From an uncultured virus (IMG/VR IMGVR_UViG_3300046798_000046) (Duplodnaviria > Heunggongvirae > Uroviricota > Caudoviricetes), in the IMG/VR virus record IMGVR_UViG_3300046798_000046: 23,110 nucleotides of DNA; one strand, given 5' to 3'. The notes below the pieces were generated by a model. It saw nothing but the letters and a program-made list of their open reading frames with translations. It was not told where the DNA came from and searched no databases. This document shows, piece by piece, positions 2,689-22,075 of the stretch (its first letter is position 1; each line of letters starts with the position of its first letter). Position numbers and translations under genes: made by a program.

Positions 2689-3069
2689 TTACGCTCGGCT
2701 TTCTCGCTGGATCTTGTCCAGCCAATCAATGGTTTCGACGGCGTGCTTGGTCGGGGACCCCGATTGCCAGGGCACCGCGCCCAGGTAGTTATAGAGGAGG
2801 TCGTACTCCTGCATCGTCACCTGGATCGATGCGGACGGCGGCGGGCCGTCCTCGGGAGCCGTCTTCAACTGGCGCTGCGGCTCCCCGTTCACCAGCTTCT
2901 TGCCGCAGGGCATCGGCTCGCTGATGCTCTCCAGCTTCTCGAAGAACCCGACTTCCGTGCGAAGGACCTGCATCCCCTTCTTCTCTTGCAGGCTCCCGCC
3001 CAACACGAAGCCGACGAACACGAACTCGAAATGCCGCTTGCCGGTCTCGTCTGAAAAATCAAGAATCAT
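2689..3069 (-). CDS. Hypothetical protein, 126 aa (possible fibre assembly factor by position only)
   Basis: ATGA overlap with upstream HNH stop, 3 nt gap to next gene, globular composition. Confidence 0.78.
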   Translation of the reverse strand: MILDFSDETGKRHFEFVFVGFVLGGSLQEKKGMQVLRTEVGFFEKLESISEPMPCGKKLVNGEPQRQLKTAPEDGPPPSASIQVTMQEYDLLYNYLGAVPWQSGSPTKHAVETIDWLDKIQRESRA

Positions 3070-3704
3070 CGTCGCCTCATGTGTTTCGGCAAGCCTTCAC
3101 GCAACCGGTACAGCGTGCGCCTGCCGATTGCCAAGTAATCCGCAATTTGCGCCATCGAAATTCGCTCGCCGTCCAGCGTCCATCGGCGACGTGGGCCGTC
3201 CAGACGACGGCTTTGGCGCGTGTTCAGGCCCTGCTCGCTTCGCGTGGCCCAGCGACAGTTGCCCGGCCTATAGTGCCCGTCGTTGTCAATCCTGTCTAGT
3301 GTCATCCCTTCCTGGCACCGGCCCATGTCCGCGAGGAAATTCTTGAATGACTCGCGCCAACGATCACAGACCGTGATGCCGCGACCGCCGTAGTTCTCGA
3401 AGCCCGTCGCCGTAGGGTTCAGGCACCGCCCCTTCATTGCCCGCCAGATACTGTACTCGCGGCTCATTCCGCCCCCGCCGTGGCGGCCCGCTTCCCCGTG
3501 TTTCGTTGCACGAGCGCGGGTGCTGTCGGACAGAAAACATCCGCAACTGCTCGCGTGTCCGCTCCGCAGTCCGTCGCCACGCACGCGACATATCACCCCA
3601 CACGCGCACTGACACATCCAGAACGCGCCGTGACCTCGGTGAGCACTCGTGTCCCGCGACAACACCGTCAACCGACCGTAGACGTGACCCGTCTCGTCTT
3701 TCAT
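3066..3704 (-). CDS. Free-standing HNH-type homing endonuclease with N-terminal Cys cluster and C-terminal HTH-like tail
   Basis: Family motifs YGRLTV, WxCxCxCG, SCGC, YGGRGITVCDRW..F..F..DMG, TLDRIDNDGHY.PGNCRWAT..EQ..N. Confidence 0.88.
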   Translation of the reverse strand: MKDETGHVYGRLTVLSRDTSAHRGHGAFWMCQCACGVICRVRGDGLRSGHASSCGCFLSDSTRARATKHGEAGRHGGGGMSREYSIWRAMKGRCLNPTATGFENYGGRGITVCDRWRESFKNFLADMGRCQEGMTLDRIDNDGHYRPGNCRWATRSEQGLNTRQSRRLDGPRRRWTLDGERISMAQIADYLAIGRRTLYRLREGLPKHMRRR

Positions 3705-3745: not shown

Positions 3746-6070
3746 TCAGTTTTTCTGGCAAAGAAAAATATCAACAAACGGGGGCAAATGCCCCACGTCT
3801 TGGGAGGTCCCGGTGATCCCCAGGCCGCGATCGGACCCGCCGGTCGCCCCGTCCACTTGCTGTGATTCGGTGGCGATCCCGCCGTAGCCTGACCCGGAGC
3901 CGCTGAACGAGTGCGTGTGCCCGCCGACCGGGTCCGTGGCCCCGCCGACCGACACCGAGAAGTTGTGCTGATGGCCGTCCCGGGTCATCACGCCGCTGCT
4001 GCCGCCATCGACGTTCATCGTCTGGCCGTTGTTGCCGCCCGTGGTCCCTGACCCGTTGAGATTCACGGTGTGGCCGTGCCCGCCGTCGTTCGACGTGCCG
4101 CCACTGATCCCGATGTCGATGCGGCCGGTCTGGCCGCCGTGCGAGTGATCGCGGGCGCGGAGGGACCCGGCGCTGTGCAAGTGGTCGGGCGCACCAAAGC
4201 TGCCTGGGCCGTGGCTGTGGCTCCACGCGCCTCCGGTCGCCCCTGCGGTCGGCCCCACGCGCAGGAAGTAGTTGTCCCACATCACGCGGGACCAGCCGGG
4301 GGGACACGGGGACACGCTGATCACGATGAGACCGGACGGGAAGGTGGGCGGGGCCACCCACTGCGAGTCTCCGCGCAGGAAGGTCGCGGACGAGGGCGCC
4401 CCCCCGCCCAGGAGCGACGGCGCGACCTGTCCGTGCGTCAAATACGACGCATTGAGATTGGTGAGCGGGGACCCGTCGCCGAACAGCGCGGCAGCATGGA
4501 AATACCCGTTCCGCTCGAAGATGTAGGCGTTCGCTTCGCCTGACCCGTCATAGTTCGCCGCTTGGAAATAGAGCGTGGAGTCCTGGTAGGCGTAGAACCG
4601 CCACTGCGTATTGGCCCACGGATCCTTGAGCAACAGGAACGCATTGGGGCCGTCGATGACCTGACTCGCGCTGAACACATTCATCCGATTGAGCAGCGCG
4701 ACGTTGGCCGAGAGCACGGCGTCCGGGATCTGGCCGTGCGTGATCTGCGAGGCGTTCAGGTTGGTCAGGTTGGACCCGTCGCCGTAAAACGTCGAGACCA
4801 CATAGGTCGAAGAGATCGTCCCGCCCGTGATTGCCACGTTGTCGGCGTTCTGCGTAGACATGGTCCCGAGGCCCAAGTTCGTCCGCGCGCCCTGCGGGAA
4901 CGTGGACCCGGTCCCGCCTTCGGCCACGGGAATGACCGGAATCGTGCTCGGCTCGCCGCCATTGCTCTTCACGTAGCCGTTCGCGAGCGTATTCATCGCC
5001 CGCTCGTTGGTCAGGACGCCATGCGCGGCGACGACCCAGTACGCCGCATCGACAGCGGCATCCGTCCCGTGAACCCCCTGCGGGCCTTGCGGCCCTGGAA
5101 TCCCTTGCGGCCCTTGTGGCCCGGTGGGACCCGGCACGCCTTGAATCCCTTGCGGGCCAATGGGACCCGGGGGGCCGACCGCCGACGCCATGCCGACCCC
5201 GGGCCACGGTTCGGGCGGGGTCGTCGTGCCGTCCACGACGCACATATAGGCGATGTTGTCCGGGCCGATGACGATGTCGCCGTCGTTGTAGGTAACAGGC
5301 GGCTGGTAGGTCCCGAGGTAATCGAGGTCCGCGCCCCCGCCGCCACTCCCCGAGGGCGCTGCGCCCGCCACGCGGATGAGGACGGTCTCGTTGTGGGCAA
5401 TCGCGCTCGGCCCCTCTTGCATGAACTGGACGGCGTATTCGACATACCCGCCCTTGTCCACCGGTTCGCCGATCGTGCGAAACTCCGCGAAGTTGGTGTG
5501 ATCCACGTTGTTCTGGATCACGATTTCCGCCCCGACGTGAATGAGCATCAACCCCCAAAAGATGTCCTCCGCATCCCGGGTCAGGTTGTGGAACCAGAGC
5601 TTGGTGACGGCGCTGTAGGGGAACAGCGCATCGAAGCGGACCTGTCCCGCCGTGGGCGGTTCATTGATCGCCGACGAGTAGCGGTACGGGAAGACGGAGG
5701 CCGCGCCTCCGGGGCCGACTGGCCCTTCGGGACCGGGAATGCCTTGGTCGCCTTGGGGACCCGCCGGGCCGATGTCGCCTTGTTGCCCTTGCGGGCCGGT
5801 TGATCCGGGCGGGCCTTGCGGCCCTGGAGGGCCATCGTCGCCTTGGGGACCGGGCGGGCCAGCGGTCCCGCCGCCGCCGCCCGTGAAGCTGGCATCGGCC
5901 AGTTCCTCGAAGAACGCTTGCCAGACGGTCGGAATCCGCTGATCGTCCTTGCTGGTGGTGATGGCTTCCCGCGCCGGGACAAAGAACGGCGCATCGCCGT
6001 TCACGTCGTAGGTGCCGGTCGCGGGATTGATCCGACGACGGCGACCCGCATAGGGCGACCGGATCGGCAT
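3746..6070 (-). CDS. Tail fibre protein, 774 aa: two collagen tracts, CBM5/12-like motif, collar-like C-terminus with six HxH motifs
   Basis: Start moved to ATG 6068-6070, which overlaps the gp10-like stop (TGATG); GPxGPQG repeats; [13 protein letters not shown]...YMC; FPSGLIV...CPPGW...FLR...HSH/HLH/HSH/HGH/HQH/HTH...[12 protein letters not shown]. Confidence 0.9.
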
Positions 6071-7494
6071 CAGCCTTGCCCACCGATCGTCAGGTACGCA
6101 TCGACAATGCGCCAGGGGATCGGGTCCGTCGTGGAAATCTCGAACACGCGATCCCGCGACGTACCGAGCCGCGCCCACCGGACGGGTTGTTTGTATTTGC
6201 CGAGTTTGCCGGTGCCGCCCAGCCGTTCGGCCTGCCACGTCTTCCCGCCGTCGTTGCTGTAGCGCATCATGATCTGCGGGGTGTGGCCCTGGATGGGATC
6301 CACCAGCCCGACGCCGACTTCCAGGTCGAGCCGCAACTCGTCGTACCGGATGTAGTTCAGTTCGTTCGCGATGTGCGGGGCACGACGGACCCGGCGAATC
6401 GTCGCGCCGTTGTCAGTGAACGCGAGCGGGCCGAGCGCGTACAGGTTGCCGTTGTCCCGGTCGCCAATCAGGTATCGGTTGAACCCGTGGCAGTGACAGA
6501 TCGCCCGGTGCGCTTCGTAGACGCCGTCGTCCTCGTTCCAGAACAGCCATTCGGTCCACAGCCCCGTGGCGGCATCGAACACCCAGGTCGCCCCTTCGTT
6601 CCGGAACGACAGGACGTAAAACGTGTGGCCTTGCCATTGGATGGTGAAGGCGATGGCGTCTTTCACGACGCCGTATTGAGCCATCGTCCATTCGAGCGCG
6701 TGGGTGCTGACCCGCTCCGGGTGGTAGCCGTTCGAGCGGAATACCGTCCGGGTGCCTTGCTGGTTCTCCCCGAGCCAGAACAGCGACTGGTCGAGTTGCG
6801 CGACCGAGAACGGCGCGGCGGTGCCCTGCTGCATCAAGGCGCTGCTGATGGGGGCAAACGGCATCTGGCCCTGGCCGATGTTGACCCACACTTCGGACGA
6901 CTGACTGCCGAACAGCCAGACCTCGCGATGAATGACCGCCATCCCGATCCACCGGTCGGACGCCGTCTGGCGTTGGGCGACCTGGAGACCGGGCCAGGAG
7001 ATGCCGTTGACGAGCGAGGAGGCTTTGAGCGTCGAGGTCGCCGTGTCGAGCGCCACGAAATACCCGTCGCAGTACCCGCCAATCGTCGCGCCCGCGAGCA
7101 CCGTCGTCAGCGTGTTGGACAGCAGGTCGAAGATGTAGCCCGTGTTCCCGGACGTGATGAAGAGTTGGTGGCCCGCATCGCCGTTGCTCGCGAACGTGGC
7201 GGGGTTGTCATCGCGGAGCACGTCCCCCCGGTCGGTCGCGACCCCGTTCTGGTCGAACTCGTAGAGCTTGAAGCCCACCACGCCAAACGTGCGCCCGTCC
7301 TCGGAGAACAGCCCCCGCACTGGGCCGTCCGTGATGCTGGAAAAGAGCGAATAGCCCGGGGTGGGATAGAGCACGGCCTGGGCCTTCGCGCCTTGGGCCT
7401 CGGTGCGTTCGACGTAGAAATTGATCGTCCGCTGCGAATCGGCGGTGCTGCTTTGGGACGGATTCGATCCGCCCACGAAGGCTTGGTATCTCAT
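6070..7494 (-). CDS. P22 gp10-like packaged-DNA stabilization / tail hub protein
   Basis: 474 aa; [74 protein letters not shown] motifs; follows gp4-like gene. Confidence 0.9.
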
Positions 7495-7506: not shown

Positions 7507-8226
7507 CTATTGATCGCTACGCCAGTCATAGACGCCCGTGCGCGAGATGATCGCGCGGTCGCAATGCAGCAGGTCATCGGGAATGTTCTGAATCTTGACG
7601 ATCATGATGGCGTCTTTCGCCATGGCGACGATGTCCTGGAGCCGGTTGCTCGCCGGGTATTCCATCGAGAGCCGCACGGCGAGGCTGTAGAGGATCGCTT
7701 CCTCAAATCCGGGCGGGAAGGTGTAGTGCGTGGAGAGGTTCGCGAACGCCGTGATGGCGGTCGGCACGTAGAGGACCGCTTCCAGGTTCGCGACGTTCGG
7801 GATGGGCCAGTAGTGGAGTCGTCCGAGCGGCCAGAACCGCTCGTAATAGACCGACTGCGGCAGCGCACTCTCGACGTTCTTGACCGGGACCGTCGTCTGC
7901 CAGTCCTGCTGCGTGAGGACGACCAGCGGCAGTTCGAGCGGCTGGACGGCGTTGTTGAACGAGGTCACGCTCGCGCCCGAGAGGGACTCCGGACGCGGTC
8001 GATCCCAGTCGCCGCCCGGCCCGATGGTGTACATCTGTTTGCCCACGGTCATCGTCAGCGTGGCCCGCTCGATGACCGGGATCATCAGCCGTTCGGCGGC
8101 CCAGCGATCCACCATCATGTTGAGCGCGACGAGGCCATCAGTGGCCTCCTGCGGGTCGAGGCTCTCCCCGGGACCGATGGCCCCCAGCATCCGGAGCGCG
8201 CGGGTGATGAGATCGAGCGCGGTCAT
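7507..8226 (-). CDS. P22 gp4-like head-to-tail adaptor
   Basis: TALDLITRALRMLG...GE.......DGL.ALN.M.D.W N-terminus; FPPGFEEAI.Y.LAVRL..EY; synteny before gp10-like gene. Confidence 0.85.
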   Translation of the reverse strand: MTALDLITRALRMLGAIGPGESLDPQEATDGLVALNMMVDRWAAERLMIPVIERATLTMTVGKQMYTIGPGGDWDRPRPESLSGASVTSFNNAVQPLELPLVVLTQQDWQTTVPVKNVESALPQSVYYERFWPLGRLHYWPIPNVANLEAVLYVPTAITAFANLSTHYTFPPGFEEAILYSLAVRLSMEYPASNRLQDIVAMAKDAIMIVKIQNIPDDLLHCDRAIISRTGVYDWRSDQ

Positions 8227-8520: not shown

Positions 8521-9609
8521 CTAGAAATTGAGAAAGCCGTTGTTGTCGGGCACGCTGCTGCCCCCGCCGTCTTCGCCGCTCCGCGTCAGAAACGTGAGCG
8601 GGGCGTTCTGATTGCGGTATTCCGTTGTCATCCATCCCGGCGTTTGGTTGGTGTACGCCACGTACATTTCATCGTAGATCCCGGGGGCCGAATAGGTGGT
8701 CGCCCCGCCGTTGTTGTAGATCCCGAAGTCGAAGAAGAAGTTGCTGGCCTGCGGGTTGACGTGGGTGCCCGCCACGGCGGTCACGTCCACGCCGTTCGCG
8801 AGGATCCGAATCGAACTGCCATTCCGGAGGAAGGCGAGCCGCACCCAACTGCCGACGACCGCCACGCCAGCGGCGGTGCCCGAGGCTTGCTGGATGCCGG
8901 GCTGGTTCGTGGTGAAGGACATCGATCCATCGTTGTTGACGACGACGTAGTACCCCTCCGATTGATACCCGCCCTTGAAGACGGGCATCTCGGCTCCGGA
9001 CGCATTGTTCAGCGAGGACGGCTTCCACCAGAAGGCGATCGTGAAGTTGTTGCTGGTGAAATCGTAGAAGCCCGGATCGGTGGTCCGGAAGAACTTGCCA
9101 AAGGTGTCGGAGTAGCCGGGGTCGGTCGTATCGATCCCGACGCCGATTTTGCCGGGGACATTCGGGCTGCTCCCGGCATTGACCAGATACCAACTGCCCT
9201 GCGCGGTCGCGTTCAGGACGGCCCCGCCAGACACGATCCCGTGGTAGGCCCCGGCATACCCGGCGTTGTCCCAGGGGGTCGTCGTGCTGCCGTCGGTCGT
9301 GATCGTCGCGTCTCCGTAGTAGAGATAGACCGCCGACCCGTCCGCGAGCGAGGCGACCGAGGCCCACACAACGATGGCGCCGGTGGCGCTGTTGTAGCTG
9401 CCCGACTCCAACTCGAAGGGCAGCGCCGTCCCGGCCAGTCCGTTGTAGGGCCGCAGGTCGAAGCCCGCCGCCGACTGGACGTGCCCGCCGCTCCCGACAA
9501 TCTTGTACCGGGCGTCCTGGTCGCCGATCAACAGCGGGAAGCTGCCGTGCGGCCCGCCCGAGACCTGTCCCGGCTTGACCGTGTAGGACGTGAAGTGCGC
9601 GAAGGCCAC
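8521..9609 (-). CDS. DUF2341-like plus LamG/concanavalin A-like lectin-fold virion protein
   Basis: FPLLI...GGHVQ...GFDLR...LPFELE..Y...TG...VW...YLYYGD; GKIG; FTIAFW, W..LAFLRNGSSIRI..NG, G.YDE...W..TEY.NQ; GTG start overlaps upstream TAG. Confidence 0.82.
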   Translation of the reverse strand: MAFAHFTSYTVKPGQVSGGPHGSFPLLIGDQDARYKIVGSGGHVQSAAGFDLRPYNGLAGTALPFELESGSYNSATGAIVVWASVASLADGSAVYLYYGDATITTDGSTTTPWDNAGYAGAYHGIVSGGAVLNATAQGSWYLVNAGSSPNVPGKIGVGIDTTDPGYSDTFGKFFRTTDPGFYDFTSNNFTIAFWWKPSSLNNASGAEMPVFKGGYQSEGYYVVVNNDGSMSFTTNQPGIQQASGTAAGVAVVGSWVRLAFLRNGSSIRILANGVDVTAVAGTHVNPQASNFFFDFGIYNNGGATTYSAPGIYDEMYVAYTNQTPGWMTTEYRNQNAPLTFLTRSGEDGGGSSVPDNNGFLNF

Positions 9610-10136
9610 TACGGCTCCTCGACCACCTGGGTCACGGCGAGGGCCTGTCGGACCAGGAGGTCCAGCATGATGTCCAGCCGCCGCTTGAGGACGGAGAGTT
9701 CGGCCAGATCGATGTCCGCGCCCGCCTTCTGAAGGACGTTGATCTGCGAGGCGAGCGACGTGCCTTGCGCGACCGCGCCCGCGACCGCTTGCGCGTGCAA
9801 CTGCTCAGGCGTGGGCGGTGGGGGCGGCGGCGGCGGATCGACGCGGGACAGGTCCAGCGTCGTGCCGATCGGCACCATCGACCCGGCCTCGACCACGTTG
9901 AACTGCCGCACATGATCCCCCACGCTCCGGTAGAGCACGTCGTCATTGGGGCACTGGAAGCGGACATCTTCGACCACGGTCGAAATCATCTTCGAGACGC
10001 CGTCATCCACGCGGAAGCGCCCGCTCCGCAGGTACTGATGCAGGGTGGACCGGTCATCGTTGGCAAACTCGACCTCAAAGAGGAAGCCGAGGCCGTAGAC
10101 GCTCTCTTCGCGGGTGAGGACGGTGGCGTGGAACAT
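9609..10136 (-). CDS. Hypothetical protein, 175 aa, poly-Pro linker plus helical C-terminus (fibre chaperone-like architecture)
   Basis: AGGAG RBS just before ATG at 10136 (MFHATVL...); PPPPPPPPTPEQ linker. Confidence 0.75.
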   Translation of the reverse strand: MFHATVLTREESVYGLGFLFEVEFANDDRSTLHQYLRSGRFRVDDGVSKMISTVVEDVRFQCPNDDVLYRSVGDHVRQFNVVEAGSMVPIGTTLDLSRVDPPPPPPPPTPEQLHAQAVAGAVAQGTSLASQINVLQKAGADIDLAELSVLKRRLDIMLDLLVRQALAVTQVVEEP

Positions 10137-10144
10137 GGGAACTC

Positions 10145-11377
10145 CTAGAATCCAGTCGCGAGCGCGGTCAGATCCCACTTGGTATCCGCCGCGTTGTACC
10201 GGAACCCGATGTACATGGTCTTGCTGGTGGTCGTCGTGATCGGCAGGGCCACGCTCCCGGCGCGATAGATGGCGTTCCAGGCGAGCGTTTGCGGCGTGCC
10301 GTTGTCCTTGACCCGGATGGTCAGATAGCTGCCATCGACGGGGGTGCCGGTGGGCGCGGCGAAGGTCGCGGTCGCGGCGAGGGCCGTGAGCAGATAGAGG
10401 TTGCGAGCACCCGCACCGACAGGAGCCGGGGTCGCGGACGAGACCGCCGACGTAACCAGTTCGGTGGGGGCACCCGCGACCCCGCCGATGACGATCCAGT
10501 TGGTGCCGTTCCAGCGTGCGAGGACGCCGTTCGTGCCGCCGGTCGTCACGATGGCCCCCGCCACCGCCGTCGTGCTGTTGTTGACATTCACAAGATCGCC
10601 AACGACCCCTGGCACAATCCCGGCGAACGGACGCTCCCCCATTTGGATTTGGGCCGTGATGATCTGATTCGCGTTCACGTTACCCGCAAATATCCCCGCG
10701 CCCCCGCGAATGAGATAGAAGGGTCGCCGCGTCGAGACGCCTGCGTCTGATTCTTCATCAATCGACAAATACCCGCCGGTCAACGTCCCAATGCGCCATC
10801 GCCGCGCATCCACCGCAGCGGAAGACTCGATCAGGACGACCGACGCGGGCGATCCGATCAGGCTCGGACTATTGCTGAACACCGGAGCCGTCCCCGCGCC
10901 CTGCGAAATCAAGACCTGACCGAGCGGAGCCGTGGGGAGGGAGGCCCCGCCGCCTCCACTCCCACTCGCCGCACTGAGATGGGTCCCGACCCCGCGTGTC
11001 ATCGTCACCGACGCCGAGCCGCTCGTGAACGCCGTCGCGCGCACGCGGACGCGCACGATCCCCCAATTCGGGAGCGCGAACTGCCCCGGCGCGGTCGTGG
11101 TCGTCGCAGACGCGCCGGTCGCGGGATTGACCAGCCCGATCGCGAGCCAGTTGGTCCCGTCCGAGGTCGCCTCGAAGGTCAGCGTCCCGGTGAATGTCCC
11201 GCTGACCTGAAGGGTCAGGGACGGGACGCTGCCGACCTGGAAGTTCGCGCACGCCGCCGCCACGGAGCAGGCGGCTCCGCTGTCCACCACCGTAATCGAG
11301 ACGGGTCCCGTGACCTGCGCGCCGACCCGGCTCGTGAGGAGCAGGGCGGCCAGTAGGCCGATACTGAGTCGTCGCAT
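10145..11377 (-). CDS. Head fibre / capsid decoration-like protein with predicted N-terminal signal peptide
   Basis: AAGGAGG RBS; MRRLSIGLLAALLLTSRVGA|Q; beta-sandwich motif QVSGTFTGTLTFEATSDGTNW...RVRVRATAFTSGS; fibre motif GQVLISQGAGTAP; directly after the coat gene. Confidence 0.8.
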   Translation of the reverse strand: MRRLSIGLLAALLLTSRVGAQVTGPVSITVVDSGAACSVAAACANFQVGSVPSLTLQVSGTFTGTLTFEATSDGTNWLAIGLVNPATGASATTTTAPGQFALPNWGIVRVRVRATAFTSGSASVTMTRGVGTHLSAASGSGGGGASLPTAPLGQVLISQGAGTAPVFSNSPSLIGSPASVVLIESSAAVDARRWRIGTLTGGYLSIDEESDAGVSTRRPFYLIRGGAGIFAGNVNANQIITAQIQMGERPFAGIVPGVVGDLVNVNNSTTAVAGAIVTTGGTNGVLARWNGTNWIVIGGVAGAPTELVTSAVSSATPAPVGAGARNLYLLTALAATATFAAPTGTPVDGSYLTIRVKDNGTPQTLAWNAIYRAGSVALPITTTTSKTMYIGFRYNAADTKWDLTALATGF

Positions 11378-11440
11378 GGGTCCCTCCTTGTCCGCGACGG
11401 ACCTCCGGCCGCATCGAGCGACCAGAGGTCCCCGAGGACG

Positions 11441-12664
11441 TTAGCCTGCGATACGGCAGGCCAGTTCGGGACGCAGCACGGCCCACCCATAAAGGATGTC
11501 CAATCTGCAAGGAAAGCGGTCGGTGTTGATGTCGTAGGCCCGAATCATCCGGATGGACAGCCCCAACTGTTTGTCCGACATGCGGGCGGCCTGCACGACG
11601 CCGGATTCCGGCAGGGGCAGGTCGGCGCACGCCAGGGTGAACGCATCCGGGTGGAAGGCCACGCCGGTCGGGGACACCGTGCCCGCGACCCCGCTCCCGC
11701 CCGTGATGATCGCGCTATCGGCGGCGAGCGCCGTCACGGTCTGACCCGCGCCGGTCGCGACGATCGCGGGCGAAATCGGCATCGCCGCCTTGCCTGCCAC
11801 GTCGCTCGCGACATTGGCGAGCACCGTGAACTGCTGGAGGGCGCCCGTGCTCTGATGGTTCTGCACGTTGGTGCCGAAGACCCCGGCAATCGTGAACGTG
11901 TCGCCCTTGTTCAGCCGGGGGCCGACCGCCGCCGTGAAGCCCTTGACGAGCAGGGTGCCGCCGGTCTGGTTCGGGCCATCGACGAGCAGGTTGGCGCCCG
12001 CCAGCCCGCCGGGACCGGCCGTCAGGCTCGCGCAGTTCTGATCCATGTAGAACTTGAACCCGGCGGCCCGCCCCATCATGCCCTTCGCGTACTGCTCGGC
12101 AATCAGGTTGGACTGCTGGAACAAGCCCTTCAAGGCATCGACGAGCGTGGCTTCCATGAGGGGGGTGATGACCACGGTCAACTGCCCGTCGAGCGGGACG
12201 CTGGCGTCCTTGAGCTTGACCCCGGCCTTGAGGTAGGTGAGCAGATCGGCGGGGGTCACCCCGGGGGTGCCGACCGAGGCGTAAATCTGCTTGGTCAACT
12301 GCAAGCCGTCGTAGTCGAGTTTGTTGGCGATGGTCGCAATCGCGGGGGTCAGGAATCGCTTGGAGAAGTCATCGATCGAGAGCGCCATATCCTGCGAGGA
12401 CGGCGAGATGTCCACGCCGAACTGCGTATCGAGCGTGACGGGCACGCTCGTTTCCACCATGTCTTCCAGGATGAGCGTCTGCCCGAGGCGGCCCTGGTAG
12501 CGGGGCGGCTTGCGGACATTCAGCACCGTGCCGATTTTGGCCCCCGAGATGCCAAATTCGCTGCTGTACTGCCGGGTGATCTGCTTGGTGAAGGTGAGCG
12601 AGTTTTCAAGGACCCGCAAGGCTTCGCGTGTGATCATACTGATCGTAAGGAACACATTGGGCAT
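11441..12664 (-). CDS. Major capsid protein, P22 coat (gp5) family, 407 aa
   Basis: MPNVFLTISMITREALRVLEN, GAKIGTVLNVRKP, LSIDDFSKRFL.PA, G.MGRAAGF.FYMDQN, GDTFTIAGV, AFH.DAF.LA..DLPLP, YDIN.D....RLDILYGW..LRPELACR; GGAG RBS before ATG 12664. Confidence 0.96.
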   Translation of the reverse strand: MPNVFLTISMITREALRVLENSLTFTKQITRQYSSEFGISGAKIGTVLNVRKPPRYQGRLGQTLILEDMVETSVPVTLDTQFGVDISPSSQDMALSIDDFSKRFLTPAIATIANKLDYDGLQLTKQIYASVGTPGVTPADLLTYLKAGVKLKDASVPLDGQLTVVITPLMEATLVDALKGLFQQSNLIAEQYAKGMMGRAAGFKFYMDQNCASLTAGPGGLAGANLLVDGPNQTGGTLLVKGFTAAVGPRLNKGDTFTIAGVFGTNVQNHQSTGALQQFTVLANVASDVAGKAAMPISPAIVATGAGQTVTALAADSAIITGGSGVAGTVSPTGVAFHPDAFTLACADLPLPESGVVQAARMSDKQLGLSIRMIRAYDINTDRFPCRLDILYGWAVLRPELACRIAG

Positions 12665-12925
12665 TGGACTGACTCCGACGCGCGCAGGGGCGCATCCCAG
12701 CAAAACCGGTGGTGTCGCTGGCCGAGGCGACGGCAGGGAGCGGCCGGAGCATCACGTAGGGGCGGGACGTGATGAACCCGTCGTGCAGGCGTCTGACCGT
12801 GAGACACTCACGGGATCGGGGACGAGGCGATCCGCCGGGTCGTCCAACGTACGTCGCGCGTTCTGGGGGCTGGGGCGCGCGGCGAGGTCCCCGTTCGGCC
12901 CGGAGGCCGATCCGCCCGATGTCGC
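12665..12925 (-). promoter_or_regulatory. Structured intergenic leader between scaffold and coat genes
   Basis: At least six short inverted repeats in 260 nt (see findings). Confidence 0.5.
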
Positions 12926-13936
12926 TTACCGGCCCCCGCCTGCCGCCCTCCAGGCGGCATACTCGGCGTAGGTCATTTGTTCCGGGTCTTTCGACGGCGT
13001 CACCGCGCTCGGATTCACGCGCGGGGGCGGCGCCGGAGCACGCGAGGCCACGGGGCGCGGGGCGGGAACACCGGCCGGGGGTCGCACGTCCGCACCGGGC
13101 CGACTCGTCGCCGGGGGGGCAGACGGAGTCAGCAACCCGCGCTCGTGCAACGCCTCAAGTTTCCCCATCTCGATAAACTGCGCGGCGGGTGGCAACCGGG
13201 TGATCCGGTCGAGTTCCGCTGGGTGCTTCATCAAGTGGTACCCAAGATCGACCCCGACCGGCGAGTTCTGAATGACCAGTTGCACTTCGGCGGTGACCGG
13301 CAGATGGGTCGCCGAGGCCAGGACCTCGTTGTAGTCCGGGTACGCCTCGCGCGCCTGGGCGAGCCGTCCCAGGTAGTCCTGTTCGGCCTGGACCTGGACG
13401 GCGCGTTGCTGGGCGTCCCACTGCTGTTGCGCCGCCTGCTGCCGTTCCTGCTGGAGCCGGGCGATCACGCGCTGTTCGGTCGCGGCGGTATTCTGCGCGA
13501 GCTTCCAGTCGGTCAGCGCCTCCATGTAGTCGGCAAAGCTCGGGTAGTCGTCTTCGGTCGGCTTGGGCGCGACCTCGACCGCCGGGACCGCCTCGACCGG
13601 GGCCGGGACGGATCCCGGCGTCCCCTCCGCTGGCGGGGCCTGGGGAATCGCGCGAATCCGGGCGAGTTCGGCTTCGAGTTGGTCGGCGCGGGCCTTCTCT
13701 TCGTACCGCTCGCGCGTCAATTGATTGATGCGGAGTTCGACCGGGGCCTTCTCTTTGGGTTCCTCGGCGACCGGCGCCGGGGTCGCCGGGGTCACCGGAT
13801 CGGGCGGGGTCGGCGCGTCCACCGGCGGCAGGCCGAGCGTGGCGCGCAGTTCGGCTTCGGTCTCGCTCACGGAACTGAGCACGACCTCGTTCTGGTTCTG
13901 GACCGGAGGAATCTCAGCCGCCATGGTGGTCTGCAT
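12926..13936 (-). CDS. Capsid scaffolding protein (start 13936 or 13924)
   Basis: Between portal and coat; RINQLTRER, P..DDY...DY.EAL.DWK, YPDY.EV, L.YHL.KHP.E..RI..L......E.GKLE, MTYAEYAAWR C-terminus. Confidence 0.9.
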   Translation of the reverse strand: MQTTMAAEIPPVQNQNEVVLSSVSETEAELRATLGLPPVDAPTPPDPVTPATPAPVAEEPKEKAPVELRINQLTRERYEEKARADQLEAELARIRAIPQAPPAEGTPGSVPAPVEAVPAVEVAPKPTEDDYPSFADYMEALTDWKLAQNTAATEQRVIARLQQERQQAAQQQWDAQQRAVQVQAEQDYLGRLAQAREAYPDYNEVLASATHLPVTAEVQLVIQNSPVGVDLGYHLMKHPAELDRITRLPPAAQFIEMGKLEALHERGLLTPSAPPATSRPGADVRPPAGVPAPRPVASRAPAPPPRVNPSAVTPSKDPEQMTYAEYAAWRAAGGGR

Positions 13937-13942
13937 CAATGA

Positions 13943-16216
13943 TTAGGGAGTCTGCCCTGAATTGGGGGCGGGCGCAAGGGCCGCGTCCCGGATCGCGGCC
14001 TCGCGGGCCTGCTGCGCGTCGTGCTGCGCGAGCGCGGCCTCGTGGCCGTGATCGAGGTGCTGGGTCAGCCGCGCGTGGTCGGTCTCGAACCGGTGCGCGG
14101 CCTGCTCGGTCTGGAGCTTGATCTGCGCGATCTGGACCTCGACGTTCAGGCGCATCGCCTCGATCCGTTCTTTCGACTGGATCTCTTCGCGGGCGATGAC
14201 GATCTTGGCCTGCGCGTCGGCGTGCCGCTGATCGACCTTCAGTTGCATGTCCTTGAGCGCCTGGGTGGCGGCCTGAAGGGCCTGTTCCTGCATCTGGCCC
14301 ATCTGTTTCATCTGCGCCATCTCGGCCTGGGCCTTCGGCGGGATGGGCGGGTCGTCGCCCTCGTCCTGCAAGTTCGGCGGCAGCGCCTTCTTCAGGCGGG
14401 CCGAGGCGGTCGCCGCCCCGGGCCAATCCATGTTCTCGACCATCAGGTCGCCGAGCAGTTGGAAGGCGGTGTCGTTGCTCGTGCAGATTTGGGTCAGCGC
14501 CTCCAGGGCTTCCTGGCGCTTGCTCGCCATCGACGGGCCGGTGCTGATCGCCACGTCGTACCGGCCGACCGACAGGTCGTAGACGTGTTTCACATCGTCG
14601 GGGAGCACTTGGCCCTCCAGGTCCTGGGGCGGCGCCCCGGCGTGAACCATCACGGTCTTCGGCTTGTCGTCCAGGCCGAGGATCCGCAGGACGCGCGGCT
14701 CATCATAGATGTGGGGGATGAGGTCCACGATGATGCGGCCGACCGCCCGAATGGCCCGCGACAAATTGTCGAGGAAGTTGCTGTTCGCCATCTCGCCCTG
14801 CTGTTGCAAGGCGGTGATGGCTTTGCCCGATTGTTCCCCCTGGCGCTGGCCGAGCGATGGCTCGAACAGGCCCATCGTCGCCTTCAGGTCGCTGTCGGCT
14901 TGGCTGATGGCGTGGGTAATCGCCATGATCGCCGGTTCGGCCACGTTGCGCTGGGGCAGCGGGGCCAACTGGCCGTTGACCATGACGGGCTTGACTTGGA
15001 GGTACGGGAACGAGCGGCGGTTGGCTTGCCGCCACTGGGCCTCGAACCCCTCGAACTGACCGGCGTAGCCCACATACGGGGCCTTCGGGGCCAGGGCGAG
15101 GGTTTCCGCGAGCGCGGTATTCTGGAAATTATACAGCCGCTGCGGATCCTTGGCGTCCCGGACCATGCCCCGGTAGTCGAGTTCCCCGTTCAGGTCCAGT
15201 TCCTCGCCAATCACCGGGATGATGGGGATGCGGTTGCCGGGCCACGCGCGGCCATCGGTCCGATCGTCGTTGCCTTCGAGGATCGCGACGGCATTGATGA
15301 GCGCGCACTTGATCTGCTTGGTCGGGACCGTGCGGCGTTTGAGTTCCCGGGTCGCCAGTTGGTCGGCGGCGGGCCACTTCCGGTAGATGTCCTCGAACAC
15401 CGATTGGCGTTGGCCGTCCGGCCATTCGACCAGCAGGAGTTCCCGGTCCACGACATCGGCCAGCCAGTAGGCCGCCGTCCGGACCTTGCCTTCGGGCATC
15501 CAGTCCTGCGCGCGTTCCCCGCCCGCGACGAACTCGGCGAGGCTCGCCATGTCGCCGTCGTCCTTGAACCGCTGTTGGTACTCGTGCTTCGGGATGTCCT
15601 CGATGATGAAGCCGAAGCGGGCATCCGACCCGTCCGGTTCCTGAATCGTCGGGTCCAGGTAGATCGAGAACGGGTTGCGGACCCGCTTGATGCGGATTTC
15701 CTGCGCGAAGGAATCTTCCGCCGAGTATTCGGTATCGACCAGCAGGTACCCGCGTCCGATGCGGGCCTGGGCTTCGGCGGCGGTCGTGTAGGCGACCTGG
15801 GCATCGGACTGCGTCTCGATGTGCCGGATGATCCCCATGAGAATTTCCGCCGTCTTGGGGTCGGCGCCGCTGTCGATCGGATTGACTTCGATGCCGGGCC
15901 GGTTGGACCGGGTCGCGTTGACCACTTGGCGAATGAACTGCGGGAGGCGGTTGATGGTCAGGCAGGGGCGTTGATCGATGATGCGCTCGCGCTTGACATC
16001 CTCGGCCCACTGCTCGCTCGCCACGAACTGGAGGTCTTCCTGCTGCTTGGCCCGCATCGTCCCTTCGGCGGCCTGCACCAACTGGAACCGCTCGCGCGCC
16101 ACCTGGAGAAACTTGGCGACTTGCTGGCGCTTCCCGTCCTCGCCCGCCTGGATCGCCGCGCCGTCACTCGTGACGAGCGTCAGGGTGTCGCGGGCCGAGA
16201 GGGCGGTCTCAGACAT
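13943..16216 (-). CDS. Portal protein, P22 gp1 family, ~757 aa
   Basis: EDL.F...EQW, RPCLTINRLPQFIRQVVN, G.VRDAKDPQRLYNF, LAPKAP, EQSGKAI...QQQG, IP.IYD..R..RILG, DLSVGRYDV....GPS..SKRQEA, long C-terminal coiled coil. Confidence 0.96.
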   Translation of the reverse strand: MSETALSARDTLTLVTSDGAAIQAGEDGKRQQVAKFLQVARERFQLVQAAEGTMRAKQQEDLQFVASEQWAEDVKRERIIDQRPCLTINRLPQFIRQVVNATRSNRPGIEVNPIDSGADPKTAEILMGIIRHIETQSDAQVAYTTAAEAQARIGRGYLLVDTEYSAEDSFAQEIRIKRVRNPFSIYLDPTIQEPDGSDARFGFIIEDIPKHEYQQRFKDDGDMASLAEFVAGGERAQDWMPEGKVRTAAYWLADVVDRELLLVEWPDGQRQSVFEDIYRKWPAADQLATRELKRRTVPTKQIKCALINAVAILEGNDDRTDGRAWPGNRIPIIPVIGEELDLNGELDYRGMVRDAKDPQRLYNFQNTALAETLALAPKAPYVGYAGQFEGFEAQWRQANRRSFPYLQVKPVMVNGQLAPLPQRNVAEPAIMAITHAISQADSDLKATMGLFEPSLGQRQGEQSGKAITALQQQGEMANSNFLDNLSRAIRAVGRIIVDLIPHIYDEPRVLRILGLDDKPKTVMVHAGAPPQDLEGQVLPDDVKHVYDLSVGRYDVAISTGPSMASKRQEALEALTQICTSNDTAFQLLGDLMVENMDWPGAATASARLKKALPPNLQDEGDDPPIPPKAQAEMAQMKQMGQMQEQALQAATQALKDMQLKVDQRHADAQAKIVIAREEIQSKERIEAMRLNVEVQIAQIKLQTEQAAHRFETDHARLTQHLDHGHEAALAQHDAQQAREAAIRDAALAPAPNSGQTP

Positions 16217-16490
16217 GGATCGGCCCATCCGGGGCGAGCGCGTGCAGGTCCTCGCGGACGGTGTCACAGATCATCCGGAAGATGGCCCGGTAGTCCTCGT
16301 CGAAGAACTGATACGCCTCGTAGGCGCCCGACCGCTTCGCCGTCCGGACGAAGTCGCGCTCGCCCGCCAGACACACGGCGAGCCGGAGGGGGTGGTCGGT
16401 CGTCCAGACGAACATCATCGCGGCACACACCGCCCAGTCCCGCCGGGGCAGCGCCCGGATGACCTCGGGGACCGTCAGGATCGTCGGCAT
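16209..16490 (-). CDS. Hypothetical protein, 93 aa
   Basis: Starts 1 nt after upstream stop; its stop overlaps the portal start region. Confidence 0.72.
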   Translation of the reverse strand: MPTILTVPEVIRALPRRDWAVCAAMMFVWTTDHPLRLAVCLAGERDFVRTAKRSGAYEAYQFFDEDYRAIFRMICDTVREDLHALAPDGPIHV

Positions 16491-17935: not shown

Positions 17936-18310
17936 TCACCCCTGTCTATGCTCACGGCCATGACAGGCTCGACAGAGCCAGGAGACCGTGCGCCGTTGCG
18001 TGTAGTCCTCGTGATGCGCTTGCATCGCCGACGCCCGCCCACACCGGGTACACGTCGAAGGGGCCTGCACGCGGCCCCGCTTCCGGCCTTGCCGAATCGA
18101 CTCCCGCGCGACGTGCTTCTGCTTCTCCGCTGGCGTTTGCCGCCGTCGCTGCTGCGCGAGCCGATGCTGCTCGCAACACGCATCACACCGAATCGCGCTC
18201 CGTGAACTGCGCGGCTGACCGCAACACCGGCACCGCCCTGCCGCAATCTGTTCCCGCTGCCACTTGTAGACCGAGACCCGCCGCCCCTCGAATCGACGCG
18301 CTACATCCAT
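17936..18310 (-). CDS. HNH-family zinc-binding endonuclease-like protein
   Basis: CxxCG...AHHEDY...V.WLC..CH...H motif plus N-terminal CxxC pairs; overlaps terL stop. Confidence 0.82.
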   Translation of the reverse strand: MDVARRFEGRRVSVYKWQREQIAAGRCRCCGQPRSSRSAIRCDACCEQHRLAQQRRRQTPAEKQKHVARESIRQGRKRGRVQAPSTCTRCGRASAMQAHHEDYTQRRTVSWLCRACHGREHRQG

Positions 18311-19833
18311 CCCGCGAGTCTATCAACCCACAAGGCCGCGAGCACGAAGATCCCCATCCAGCTTTGGCCCTGCTGGCCCAGGTCGTACGGACTCGCCTGC
18401 ACGCGCCGCGTCGGCGTCTCCCCCTCCGGCGGCCGATGCCTCGTCGCCAACCCCCGCAAGGCATCGGCCCCGTGGGTCGCGAAGTTCCGCACCGGCGTCC
18501 CCGTGAACTGCCCGAGACTCGCGTTCCAGACTTTCCGGTAGTTTCGCAGACATTCGATCCCGCGCGCGCACTGCACGGCGTCGAACCAGCAGCGGGCCAG
18601 GAACGCCCGGGTCGCATTGATCCCGTCCCCGAGATCGAGCTTGGCCGTCACCTCGAAGTTGACCCCGAGCGCCCGCGCCGACTCAATGCGGCTCTTCCCG
18701 GTCCCCAACTCGCGCACCTTGATGTCATGCGGGCCATTATGCGTCCCGTACACATACGGCTTCTCCTGGAGCACCTTCACGTAGTGCGGGAGACCCTCGC
18801 CACTATTCTCGTAGTAATCAATGAGCCGAATCTCCCCGCTCCGGAGACTCTGGCTGAACCAGATGGTCGTGCTGTCATCCACCCCGAGGTCCCAGTCCGT
18901 ATCGACCGGCAGCGCCGGGTCATACGGCACCGCCCGAATCCGGCCCTCCGTCTTCGCGACCTGCATCTCCTTGGCGAAGAACGCCCCCTTGATCGCCGCA
19001 TCCGCCGACAGGTACCACTCCTGGTCGTAGTCGTCCTGACTCATCAACCCCTGCACAATCAAGTCCCGGTCATCGGCCATCGCCTGACTGAGCAGTTGGA
19101 TCGTAATGCCTTCTTCGGTCGCCAGACTCGTATCCACGTCCTGCCACAGACTGAACCACGTCTCGGGCGCCTTCGTCGCCGCCTCCCACGTCCGATACAA
19201 ATGATCCTTGCCCTTGATGGTGCCCAAAAAGATCGCATACCCGAGATGGTCCCCGAGCGCCTTGCTCAACACCGACCCGAAAATCTCCGGATCCTGCTGG
19301 CTATACTCATCAAAACTCAGCCCGCTGAACGCCGGACCGCGCAACGAATCCGGATGATCCGCCCCGAACAACTGAAACTTGTTCCCATTCGGATACCGCA
19401 CGAGGAGTTCCTGCTCGTTCAAGACCACGCCCCGCACCCCCCGCGCATAGTGCTTCACCTTGTCCCACACCGCCAGCTTCGCCACCTTGTAGGTCGGCAT
19501 CACATGCCCGTAATGCCTGCCCCCCGGCGGATGAATCAGTTCCTCCAGATCCTGCTCCTTCCGCGCCAACCCCGGCTTCAGAAACAGCAACCGCCCCCGC
19601 TCCCACGCGTCCACCAGCGCCGCCCGCTGATGATGGTTAATCACCGCCGTCGATTTCCCACACCGCCGATGCAACACGAGCACCGCAAACCGCTTGTAAC
19701 TGGCATGAAACGCCTTCGCCCAATTCCTCGGCCGATACGGAATCACCCGCGACTCCCCCGGCACCTCCTTCACCCCCGGCCGCCACCCCGGCGCCTTCCC
19801 CGGCCCCGACCGCACCCCCTTCTCAAACGCCAT
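18301..19833 (-). CDS. terL: Terminase large subunit
   Basis: IPYRPR; Walker A HRRCGKST; GAD.PDSLRG; Walker B LSFDEY; GT.KGK; nuclease WDLG.DD.T.IWF.Q, PHD..VRELGTG, HGADALR. Confidence 0.97.
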   Translation of the reverse strand: MAFEKGVRSGPGKAPGWRPGVKEVPGESRVIPYRPRNWAKAFHASYKRFAVLVLHRRCGKSTAVINHHQRAALVDAWERGRLLFLKPGLARKEQDLEELIHPPGGRHYGHVMPTYKVAKLAVWDKVKHYARGVRGVVLNEQELLVRYPNGNKFQLFGADHPDSLRGPAFSGLSFDEYSQQDPEIFGSVLSKALGDHLGYAIFLGTIKGKDHLYRTWEAATKAPETWFSLWQDVDTSLATEEGITIQLLSQAMADDRDLIVQGLMSQDDYDQEWYLSADAAIKGAFFAKEMQVAKTEGRIRAVPYDPALPVDTDWDLGVDDSTTIWFSQSLRSGEIRLIDYYENSGEGLPHYVKVLQEKPYVYGTHNGPHDIKVRELGTGKSRIESARALGVNFEVTAKLDLGDGINATRAFLARCWFDAVQCARGIECLRNYRKVWNASLGQFTGTPVRNFATHGADALRGLATRHRPPEGETPTRRVQASPYDLGQQGQSWMGIFVLAALWVDRLAGWM

Positions 19834-21734: not shown

Positions 21735-21935
21735 ATGGCCGCGCTCACCGTTACCGCCATGCGCGCTGCCCTGGCCTCGCTCGGCTTGTCGGCACGCCGC
21801 ACGCCTGGAGGCGACATCCGGGTCGCCTTCCAGGGCCACGGACACGAAGCCAGCGCCTGCTATGAGACCGACTGGCGCGCGGCGTACGACACCGGCGTAG
21901 CGATGGCCGTCGAAGCGGCGAAGGGGGCCAAATGA
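21735..21935 (+). CDS. Hypothetical protein, 66 aa (MAALTVTAMRAALASLGL...)
   Basis: GGAGG RBS; ATGA overlap downstream. Confidence 0.75.
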   Translation: MAALTVTAMRAALASLGLSARRTPGGDIRVAFQGHGHEASACYETDWRAAYDTGVAMAVEAAKGAK

Positions 21936-22075
21936 GCCGCCGCACCCTCGCCGCGCTGCTCGCCCTGGCCGTCCTCTACAGCGTCTACACCGTCCTCGAC
22001 GCCCAGCGCCTTCGCGCGGGCGACCGACGAGACGCCGAGGCCGCCATCTACCTCGCATCCAGGGGGGCACAATGA
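21932..22075 (+). CDS. Membrane-anchored microprotein, 47 aa (MSRRTLAALLALAVLYSVYTVLDAQ...); not in ORF track
   Basis: ATGA coupling at both ends; basic N-terminus plus hydrophobic helix. Confidence 0.68.
   Translation: MSRRTLAALLALAVLYSVYTVLDAQRLRAGDRRDAEAAIYLASRGAQ

Follow-up and report, generated by a model that had tools for sequence, protein, structure and literature searches.

We analyzed a 23,110-nucleotide stretch of DNA from an uncultured tailed soil virus (Caudoviricetes; IMG/VR record IMGVR_UViG_3300046798_000046), hereafter the window, and studied a 410-residue open reading frame (ORF) at 10145-11377 on the minus strand. Its product, P0001, is predicted to be fiber-shaped and is very probably exported through the Sec pathway and cut by signal peptidase I. 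On the textbook view, tailed-phage particles are built entirely in the cytoplasm, and the gene nevertheless lies directly after a P22-type coat gene, within a podovirus head-tail module. Our preferred interpretation, on which our confidence is evenly divided, is that P0001 is an exported, envelope-directed, XepA-like accessory fiber made late in infection. A first-pass annotation had described it as a virion fiber-type protein: a trimeric fiber model agrees with the shape, whereas the likeness to XepA, the conservation pattern and a family member lacking any fiber argue against a place in the virion. The undescribed assembly route that the same annotation had proposed stands as a possibility.

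Under this interpretation, P0001 would be a late phage protein exported by Sec, and signal peptidase I would cut after VGA and expose Gln21. The mature protein would form a homotrimeric fiber consisting of an N-terminal XepA/YomS-like jelly-roll with a probable disulfide and a distal tip of the tail-fiber type. It is most likely not built into the particle in the cytoplasm; more probably it acts at a late stage of infection and on the envelope of the host, as thought for XepA of phage PBSX. The conserved N-terminal domain may be the working part, because it is the sole part in the shortest family members, while host-specific attachment, to a glycan or receptor of the envelope, would fall to the exchangeable fiber and tip. 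Such a protein could help lysis or release, or could keep receptors blocked on dying cells and the debris they leave. Our analysis shows a conserved leader, the fold, a trimer model, shared modules and the synteny; export and cleavage, the disulfide, absence from virions and an envelope target are inferences.

Predicted export signal and cysteine pair

The start of the gene had been placed by an AAGGAGG ribosome-binding site, and this was confirmed. Between the upstream stop and the ATG at 11377-11375 there is no other in-frame start, and the Shine–Dalgarno sequence (11383..11389, minus strand; read directly from the DNA) is separated from it by a 5-nt spacer. The N-terminus reads MRRLSIGLLAALLLTSRVGA followed by QVTGP. 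The leader, residues 1-20 (11318..11377, minus strand), consists of MRR as the n-region, LSIGLLAALLL as the h-region and TSRVGA as the c-region, with predicted cleavage at VGA↓Q. It has the layout of a Sec/signal peptidase I substrate, with a positive n-region, an uncharged hydrophobic h-region and small residues at positions –3 and –1, and by motif it is neither of the lipoprotein nor of the Tat type.

Residues 1-135 served as the query of an exhaustive phmmer search, which returned 2,923 representative clusters at E ≤ 0.001 (328 of them at E ≤ 1e-10), and we examined the query together with the best 150 of these clusters (n = 151). Leaders were called with a simple purpose-made n-h-c rule, not with SignalP. 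A leader was found in 138 of the 151 family members versus 9 of 85 fiber-like control proteins drawn from a word search with P0001, and at least two of the nine positive controls (P0082 and P0087) have a P0001-type N-terminal domain. Judged by these sequence counts, the leader is not a chance feature. We also re-read the frames around the matches directly in viral loci with flanks of up to 8 kb, where the gene calls were rough and based on third-codon-position G+C (GC3). The leader stood directly before the domain in 13 of 17 distinct viral loci. The expectation that homologs keep the leader thus held for the large majority, while the remaining four loci (L015, L017, L018 and L020) and 9 of the 151 proteins are truly leaderless, all of them also without the cysteine pair described below.

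The leaders are uniform in form and variable in sequence. The pattern small-x-small followed by Gln was present in 134 of the 138, with Ala at –1 in 129 of the 134; the median length was 20 residues (range 16-30) and the h-region spanned 9-14 residues. Among the same 134, a Tat-like motif was seen once, a lipobox-like motif three times and an RR pair 49 times; in P0001 the residue at +1 is Gln. Across six close relatives the only invariant positions in the leader region were R3, A20 and Q21, and compared with a 95% identical relative, 3 of 20 leader residues differ versus 3 of 115 in the domain. The leader sequence has drifted faster than the domain and has retained its hydrophobic character across relatives.

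The first-pass annotation had also noted a close pair of cysteines in the predicted mature part, C37 and C43 (CSVAAAC, residues 37-43; 11249..11269, minus strand). The pair is invariant in our alignment of relatives (A1) and is a candidate, and probable, disulfide. Its presence follows that of the leader: among the 151 proteins, 134 have both, 4 the leader only, 4 the pair only and 9 neither, and the four with the pair alone look like truncated or mis-called starts. The same held for three loci from metagenome-assembled genomes (MAGs; L024-L026), in which the leader-bearing member has the pair and the two leaderless ones do not; locus L021 is an exception, having the leader without the pair. 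Such a tie to the export signal fits a protein that folds outside the cytoplasm, since the pair would be expected to oxidize only there. Export as originally proposed is therefore well supported: a very large family conserves the leader, which has the features of a Sec/signal peptidase I substrate and co-occurs with the cysteine pair.

The Gln at +1 recalls the Q-rule of the Bacteroidetes, in which a cyclase converts the new N-terminal Gln to pyroglutamate; the available part of its published description gives a mean Q-value of 71% for Bacteroidetes and scattered values for other groups (PMC5837995). Five phage genes of unknown function in Porphyromonas gingivalis phages likewise obey the rule, according to the accessible part of that report (PMC10367356). 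The P0001 family resembles these substrates in having Gln after the site in nearly all leaders, but its loci have a G+C content of 60-70%, and the Gln could reflect either a rule of the host or a need of the family.

Jelly-roll domain, fiber shaft and tip

The conserved core of the family is a domain of ~110 residues, at residues 21-135 of P0001 (10973..11317, minus strand). In an AlphaFold2 monomer model built from a 95-row alignment, residues 21-130 had a predicted local distance difference test (pLDDT) of 94-98 and residues ~330-410 of ~90, and the middle part was poorly modeled. The N-terminal fold is predicted to be a 4+4 antiparallel jelly-roll superposable on two proteins of Bacillus subtilis prophages, XepA's C-terminal domain, from PBSX (6i56_C; Z 14.5, root-mean-square deviation 1.9 Å over 105 residues) and YomS from SPbeta (6i5o_A; Z 14.1), with deviations of 1.9-2.4 Å over 105-108 residues for the two. 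The Foldseek E-value for the XepA-family match was 2e-6, and the next tier of unrelated folds lay at Z ≤ 9.6. Together with the fiber model below, this supports the beta-sandwich base and fiber shaft that the first-pass annotation had read from the sequence.

Sequence comparison gave a mixed picture. With a profile of 12 domain sequences (A3), XepA was the top sequence match in the PDB, though short of significance (E 0.13), and the weak signal is in register, including the motif GTLxFE..D...W. The same profile aligned with P0091, a leaderless fiber-like protein labeled PF27453 XepA in a precomputed table, at 98% probability and E 2.1e-13 (hhalign), though a PF27453 match was not reported by our local copy of Pfam even for P0091 itself. 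In the ESM Atlas the clusters nearest to the domain are viral and some carry PF27453. On the predicted fold, the P0001 domain belongs with XepA and YomS, and the three are probably related by descent.

The published account of these two proteins gives the comparison its functional interest. In its accessible part (PMC6834076), XepA is described as a late protein that rises until lysis, is exported beyond the membrane, is absent from mature PBSX particles and is of unknown function; the purified protein kills Bacillus lawns and YomS does not. XepA and YomS are, like P0001, encoded at the edge of the phage structural genes, and YomS is a single-domain form (PMC6834076, same part), as is the 141-residue member in L011. 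The likeness has limits: in P0001 the domain is N-terminal, with a canonical Sec leader before it, the cysteine pair in it and a trimeric fiber predicted after it, whereas XepA, from a Gram-positive host, has two domains and the form of a pentameric dumbbell, with no leader described in the part of the report available (PMC6834076).

Existing family collections cover these proteins sparsely. P0001 matched no Pfam family at E ≤ 0.01, and in PHROGs it matched only phrog_3030 (at the tip) and, weakly, phrog_16217. Pfam matched just two of 111 family members, both leaderless and both to F5/8 type C, and PHROGs gave any match in 6 of 89. A tblastn search of the N-terminal domain against 50,697 records of cultured phages gave one weak, partial match, and a scan of 185,579 species genomes with one narrow pattern found three MAG contigs; almost all relatives lie on viral contigs.

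The domain also occurs in other arrangements. A leader-bearing protein of 2,504 residues, P0233, contains ten stretches detected by HMMER, and leaderless proteins of 590-1,040 residues (P0097, P0094 and P0128 among them) contain it three to five times. Two of the latter, P0097 and P0140, score as F5/8 type C, a hint at a lectin-like nature. Small leaderless versions without the cysteines (117-118 residues) occur in L017 (7890-8243), L018 (frame 2099-2452) and L020 (5297-5653), where they lie between portal and coat in an unrelated lineage with a phrog_10 coat; they could serve another purpose than the exported form does.

Beyond the domain, P0001 continues with a Gly-rich linker and fiber shaft (residues 136-310; 10448..10972, minus strand) and a phrog_3030-like C-terminal tip (residues 311-410; 10148..10447, minus strand). 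The shaft includes the modules LPTAPLGQVLISQGAG and ARWNGTNW, which are common to the middle parts of the fiber proteins P0005, P0062 and P0069. The tip matched phrog_3030 at 1.7e-13 over residues 334-406; most of the 91 word-search matches to P0001 cover only its last 80-100 residues, and several of the proteins sharing it carry collagen repeats or pectate-lyase, beta-helix or SGNH domains. Its fold shows a moderate likeness (Z 7.5-8.2) to the spike of a phage capsid, to the C-terminus of a tailspike and to parts of CBA120 TSP4. The module sharing with tail fibers claimed in the first-pass annotation was therefore found for fiber-like proteins of other phages and not for the fibers of the same phage: BLASTP of P0001 against the two collagen-type fibers and the LamG protein of the window gave no match (best E 0.22, 0.41 and 0.51), the C-terminus of the second fiber lying off the window and outside the comparison.

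When residues 131-410 were modeled as three chains, they formed an intertwined homotrimer with a score of 0.87, against 0.00 for the best of three controls; this mark was attained by 20 of the 30 proteins solved as one-chain pairs, against 1 of the 23 solved as single chains. The models had 647-675 contacts and a pLDDT of 89-92 (partner pLDDT at least 89), and the three runs shared at least 87% of the contacts. The shaft, of low pLDDT as a monomer, reached 89-92 with dense inter-chain contacts as a trimer. On the model's own confidence, residues 131-410 would form a homotrimeric fiber. We set aside the idea that the C-terminus is a sorting domain of the type IX secretion system, as the same domain ends leaderless fibers and makes trimer contacts in the model.

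Two side observations concern the tip. Six proteins (P0014, P0017, P0018, P0081, P0083 and P0092) combine the same tip with unrelated N-termini and, by eye, leaders ending in Gln, and export of fiber-like phage proteins may extend beyond the XepA-like family. In L005 a phrog_3030 tip (3.5e-16) occurs on a separate 242-residue protein encoded right after the hub gene (11537-12265), and the exported protein of that locus has a different C-terminus; the locus shows that the tip moves between leaderless and exported carriers.

Synteny, conservation and competing explanations

The gene occurs in operons with at least three coat types (phrog_283, phrog_212 and phrog_14242), and its position varies. 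It directly follows the coat gene, a head-decoration position, only in the window, L002 and L003; elsewhere it lies by the adaptor or hub gene or before the tail genes. In four loci (L004, L007, L009 and L011) it is placed between adaptor and hub, in L005 and L013 a single gene separates it from the hub downstream (a 93-residue ORF also separating it from the adaptor ahead of it in L013), and in L023 it precedes the adaptor. Other structural lineages place it among their head and tail genes, as in L006 and L014 (both with a phrog_212 coat) and L021 (phrog_14242 coat); in L022 it comes after a gene for DNA ejection (phrog_598) and two large ORFs without assignment. In a cultured relative, Rhodoferax phage P26218, the predicted adaptor (gp33, annotated as hypothetical) adjoins the hub and the gene is absent between them. 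The member in L011 is a complete protein of 141 residues made of leader and domain only, with no fiber. Because the position varies and L011 retains only leader and domain, the gene behaves, as far as the sequences reveal, as a mobile accessory of which the exported domain is the constant part.

The domain was also far more conserved than the genes around it. Its mature form is 48-61% identical to that of the window across loci, against 23-33% for the coat, 22-36% for the adaptor, 30-40% for the hub and 26-32% for the portal of the same loci. It is still 42-56% identical in L006, L014, L021 and L022, in whose flanks tblastn found no similarity to the structural proteins of the window phage. 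A docking domain should track its partner, and conservation that does not track the virion proteins therefore argues against virion docking; the pattern is in keeping with an activity that is self-contained or with a target conserved in the host. P0001 is presumably absent from virions and directed at a target in the envelope.

Several observations weigh against an exported, envelope-directed, XepA-like accessory. Support for export consists of sequence features and their conservation. The link to XepA consists of the fold and a weak sequence signal, at 16-18% identity; the modeled trimer differs from the XepA pentamer, and XepA itself, from a Gram-positive host, has no known function. Pfam and PHROG scans of 15 window ORFs identified no lysis genes next to the P0001 gene. 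Finally, the gene is on the structural strand in all 22 viral loci, within head-tail operons; a conserved N-terminal domain followed by a variable distal fiber is the design of a virion fiber; and the leaderless relative P0091 resembles an ordinary fiber with the domain at its N-terminus.

Two of the alternatives, the decoy and conversion ideas, overlap in part with the preferred interpretation, and our probabilities are not meant to sum to one. The best placed alternative, which we still consider unlikely, is a receptor-binding decoy: an exported protein occupying or masking the phage's own receptor, either for superinfection exclusion or to stop infected cells and debris from capturing progeny. 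Exported receptor blockers encoded beside receptor-binding genes are known, such as Llp of T5 and Cor. Lom and Bor of lambda, Llp and Cor have in common with P0001 a signal peptide on a protein encoded among virion genes and, if the preferred interpretation is right, action on the envelope, but they are small outer-membrane proteins or lipoproteins, unlike a trimeric fiber without a lipobox. The decoy idea is also favored by shaft and tip modules of a type exchanged among tail fibers, and an export signal on a fiber-like protein fits an envelope destination. Receptor masking, as suggested in the first-pass annotation, nevertheless drew no support from the loci: P0001 is not similar to the fibers of its own phage, and BLASTP at E ≤ 1e-3 matched the exported protein to no other ORF of its own locus in any of the 17 loci. 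This intra-locus comparison weakens the decoy idea, with the reservations that the flanks reached at most 8 kb and that the tip of the second fiber of the window lies off its end. The cultured-phage relatives of the portal infect diderms (Rhodoferax, Xanthomonas, Vibrio, Pseudomonas and Chlorobiaceae), and in a diderm a periplasmic protein would need a further secretion step to reach a surface receptor; the domain-only members, moreover, have no receptor-binding part.

Somewhat less probable is a true virion fiber or decoration that folds and oxidizes in the periplasm and docks once the holin opens the inner membrane, or at or after lysis. P0001 resembles podovirus tail fibers and tailspikes (of the T7 gp17 and P22 gp9 types) and head fibers (phi29 gp8.5 type) in its predicted homotrimeric form, module exchange and operon position. 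Besides the operon context, in which the gene often sits exactly between adaptor and hub, the fiber design and P0091, a virion role would suit the likeness of the tip to capsid spike and tailspike parts and the small leaderless homologs between portal and coat genes in L017 and L020. To our knowledge, however, fibers and spikes of these types carry no export signal, and their assembly is cytoplasmic; P0001 differs from them further in that the conservation of its N-terminal domain is uncoupled from that of the virion proteins. The domain is far better conserved than any candidate docking partner and co-occurs with mutually dissimilar structural modules, and the L011 member has no fiber to contribute. 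In open-access papers and bioRxiv, we found no exported fiber-like phage protein, no extracytoplasmic assembly route and no description of the combination of Sec leader, cysteine pair, XepA-like domain and trimeric tail-fiber-tipped fiber in podovirus operons. XepA, too, is reported absent from particles in the accessible part of its description (PMC6834076). On balance, a virion protein is less likely than an exported XepA-like accessory directed at the envelope. The more specific scheme, in which the fiber matures in the periplasm with a disulfide and an N-terminal pyroglutamate and joins finished particles after holin action or lysis, is a shade less probable again.

It is distinctly improbable that P0001 is a lysogenic-conversion adhesin, made from a prophage and displayed on its host cell. 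This reading would account for an exported, adhesin-like trimeric fiber, and exported morons such as Lom of lambda are known within late operons, but no promoter-like site was found in 9500-13000 that would give the gene a promoter of its own, and it lies in a tightly packed late operon with a probably coupled downstream gene. A non-exhaustive search of the window identified no integrase or repressor, and the near-confinement of relatives to viral contigs, with three matches by one narrow pattern in the species genomes, speaks against a prophage-borne trait. Least probable of all is that the hydrophobic N-terminus is no export signal and belongs to an ordinary cytoplasmic virion fiber, being buried, membrane-associated during assembly or cut by another protease, as is thought of the prohead protease and the signal-peptide-like N-termini of P. 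gingivalis phage capsid proteins (PMC10367356, accessible part), because all the canonical features are present, hydrophobicity is retained despite drift, Ala at –1 is nearly constant and the link to the cysteine pair is strict. P22 gp7 loses 20 N-terminal residues to a cytoplasmic peptidase, which fits this last reading; for the same reason it was dropped as a precedent for a cleaved leader on a virion protein.

Genomic neighborhood and wider meaning

The window has a G+C content of 66%, and its morphogenesis block runs on the minus strand. The large terminase (18301-19833) is followed by a P22-type portal (13943-16267; PF16510, 6e-160), a scaffold (12926-13939) and the P22-type coat (11441-12703; PF11651 P22_CoatProtein, 3.1e-33; phrog_283, 1.9e-72). 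Downstream of the P0001 gene lie an adaptor of the SU10/P22 gp4 type (7507-8226) and a gp10-type hub (6070-7494; phrog_578, 2.3e-100), and past the hub a collagen-repeat fiber, an HNH endonuclease (3066-3704; phrog_374, 7.3e-64) and a second collagen-repeat fiber running off the window. Between the coat and adaptor genes is also a LamG/concanavalin-like protein (8521-9609; PF13385, 1.1e-13), which makes it another candidate for a glycan-binding accessory of the head-tail block; a 94-residue ORF separates it from the adaptor. The nearest record, a 13.7-kb viral fragment (G001), has an identical gene order and encodes a protein 95% identical to P0001.

The gene immediately downstream of that for P0001 (9609-10136, or to 10178 at its longest; minus strand) encodes 175 residues from the ATG at 10136. 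It starts 9 nt past the P0001 stop, its AGGAG overlaps that stop, and the two genes are probably translationally coupled. The product has a proline-rich linker, with a proline run, and a helical C-terminal part; it has no Pfam or PHROG family match, is conserved in L002 and L003, and may be a partner or chaperone of the P0001 fiber. On the other side, the 63-nt gap between the coat stop and the P0001 gene contains a strong GC-rich stem-loop (11396..11434, minus strand; –45.7 kcal/mol, z –3.88), with equally good folding in 1 of 200 shuffled sequences. It has no U-tract and a terminator scan made no call; it could be a post-coat attenuator or an RNA-stabilizing hairpin. The sole other membrane-type N-terminus in the window is that of a 47-residue ORF on the plus strand (21932-22075), which has one hydrophobic segment (MSRRTLAALLALAVLYSVYTV...); no lysis cassette was identified.

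Should P0001 prove to be on the particle, the textbook assembly pathway would change. Periplasmic maturation and late joining, if true, would give tailed phages their first described assembly step outside the cytoplasm, one used by a large group of uncultured soil phages marked by the leader and the XepA-like domain. An export-signaled, fiber-shaped protein amid a structural operon, from a family of ~2,900 sequence clusters that is nearly absent from cultured phages, points to an as yet unstudied late function, widespread and exercised at the host envelope. XepA, the only characterized relative, has been without an assigned function since the 1980s, and the family supplies natural variants (domain only, domain with fiber, with and without the leader) for working out what proteins of the XepA type do.

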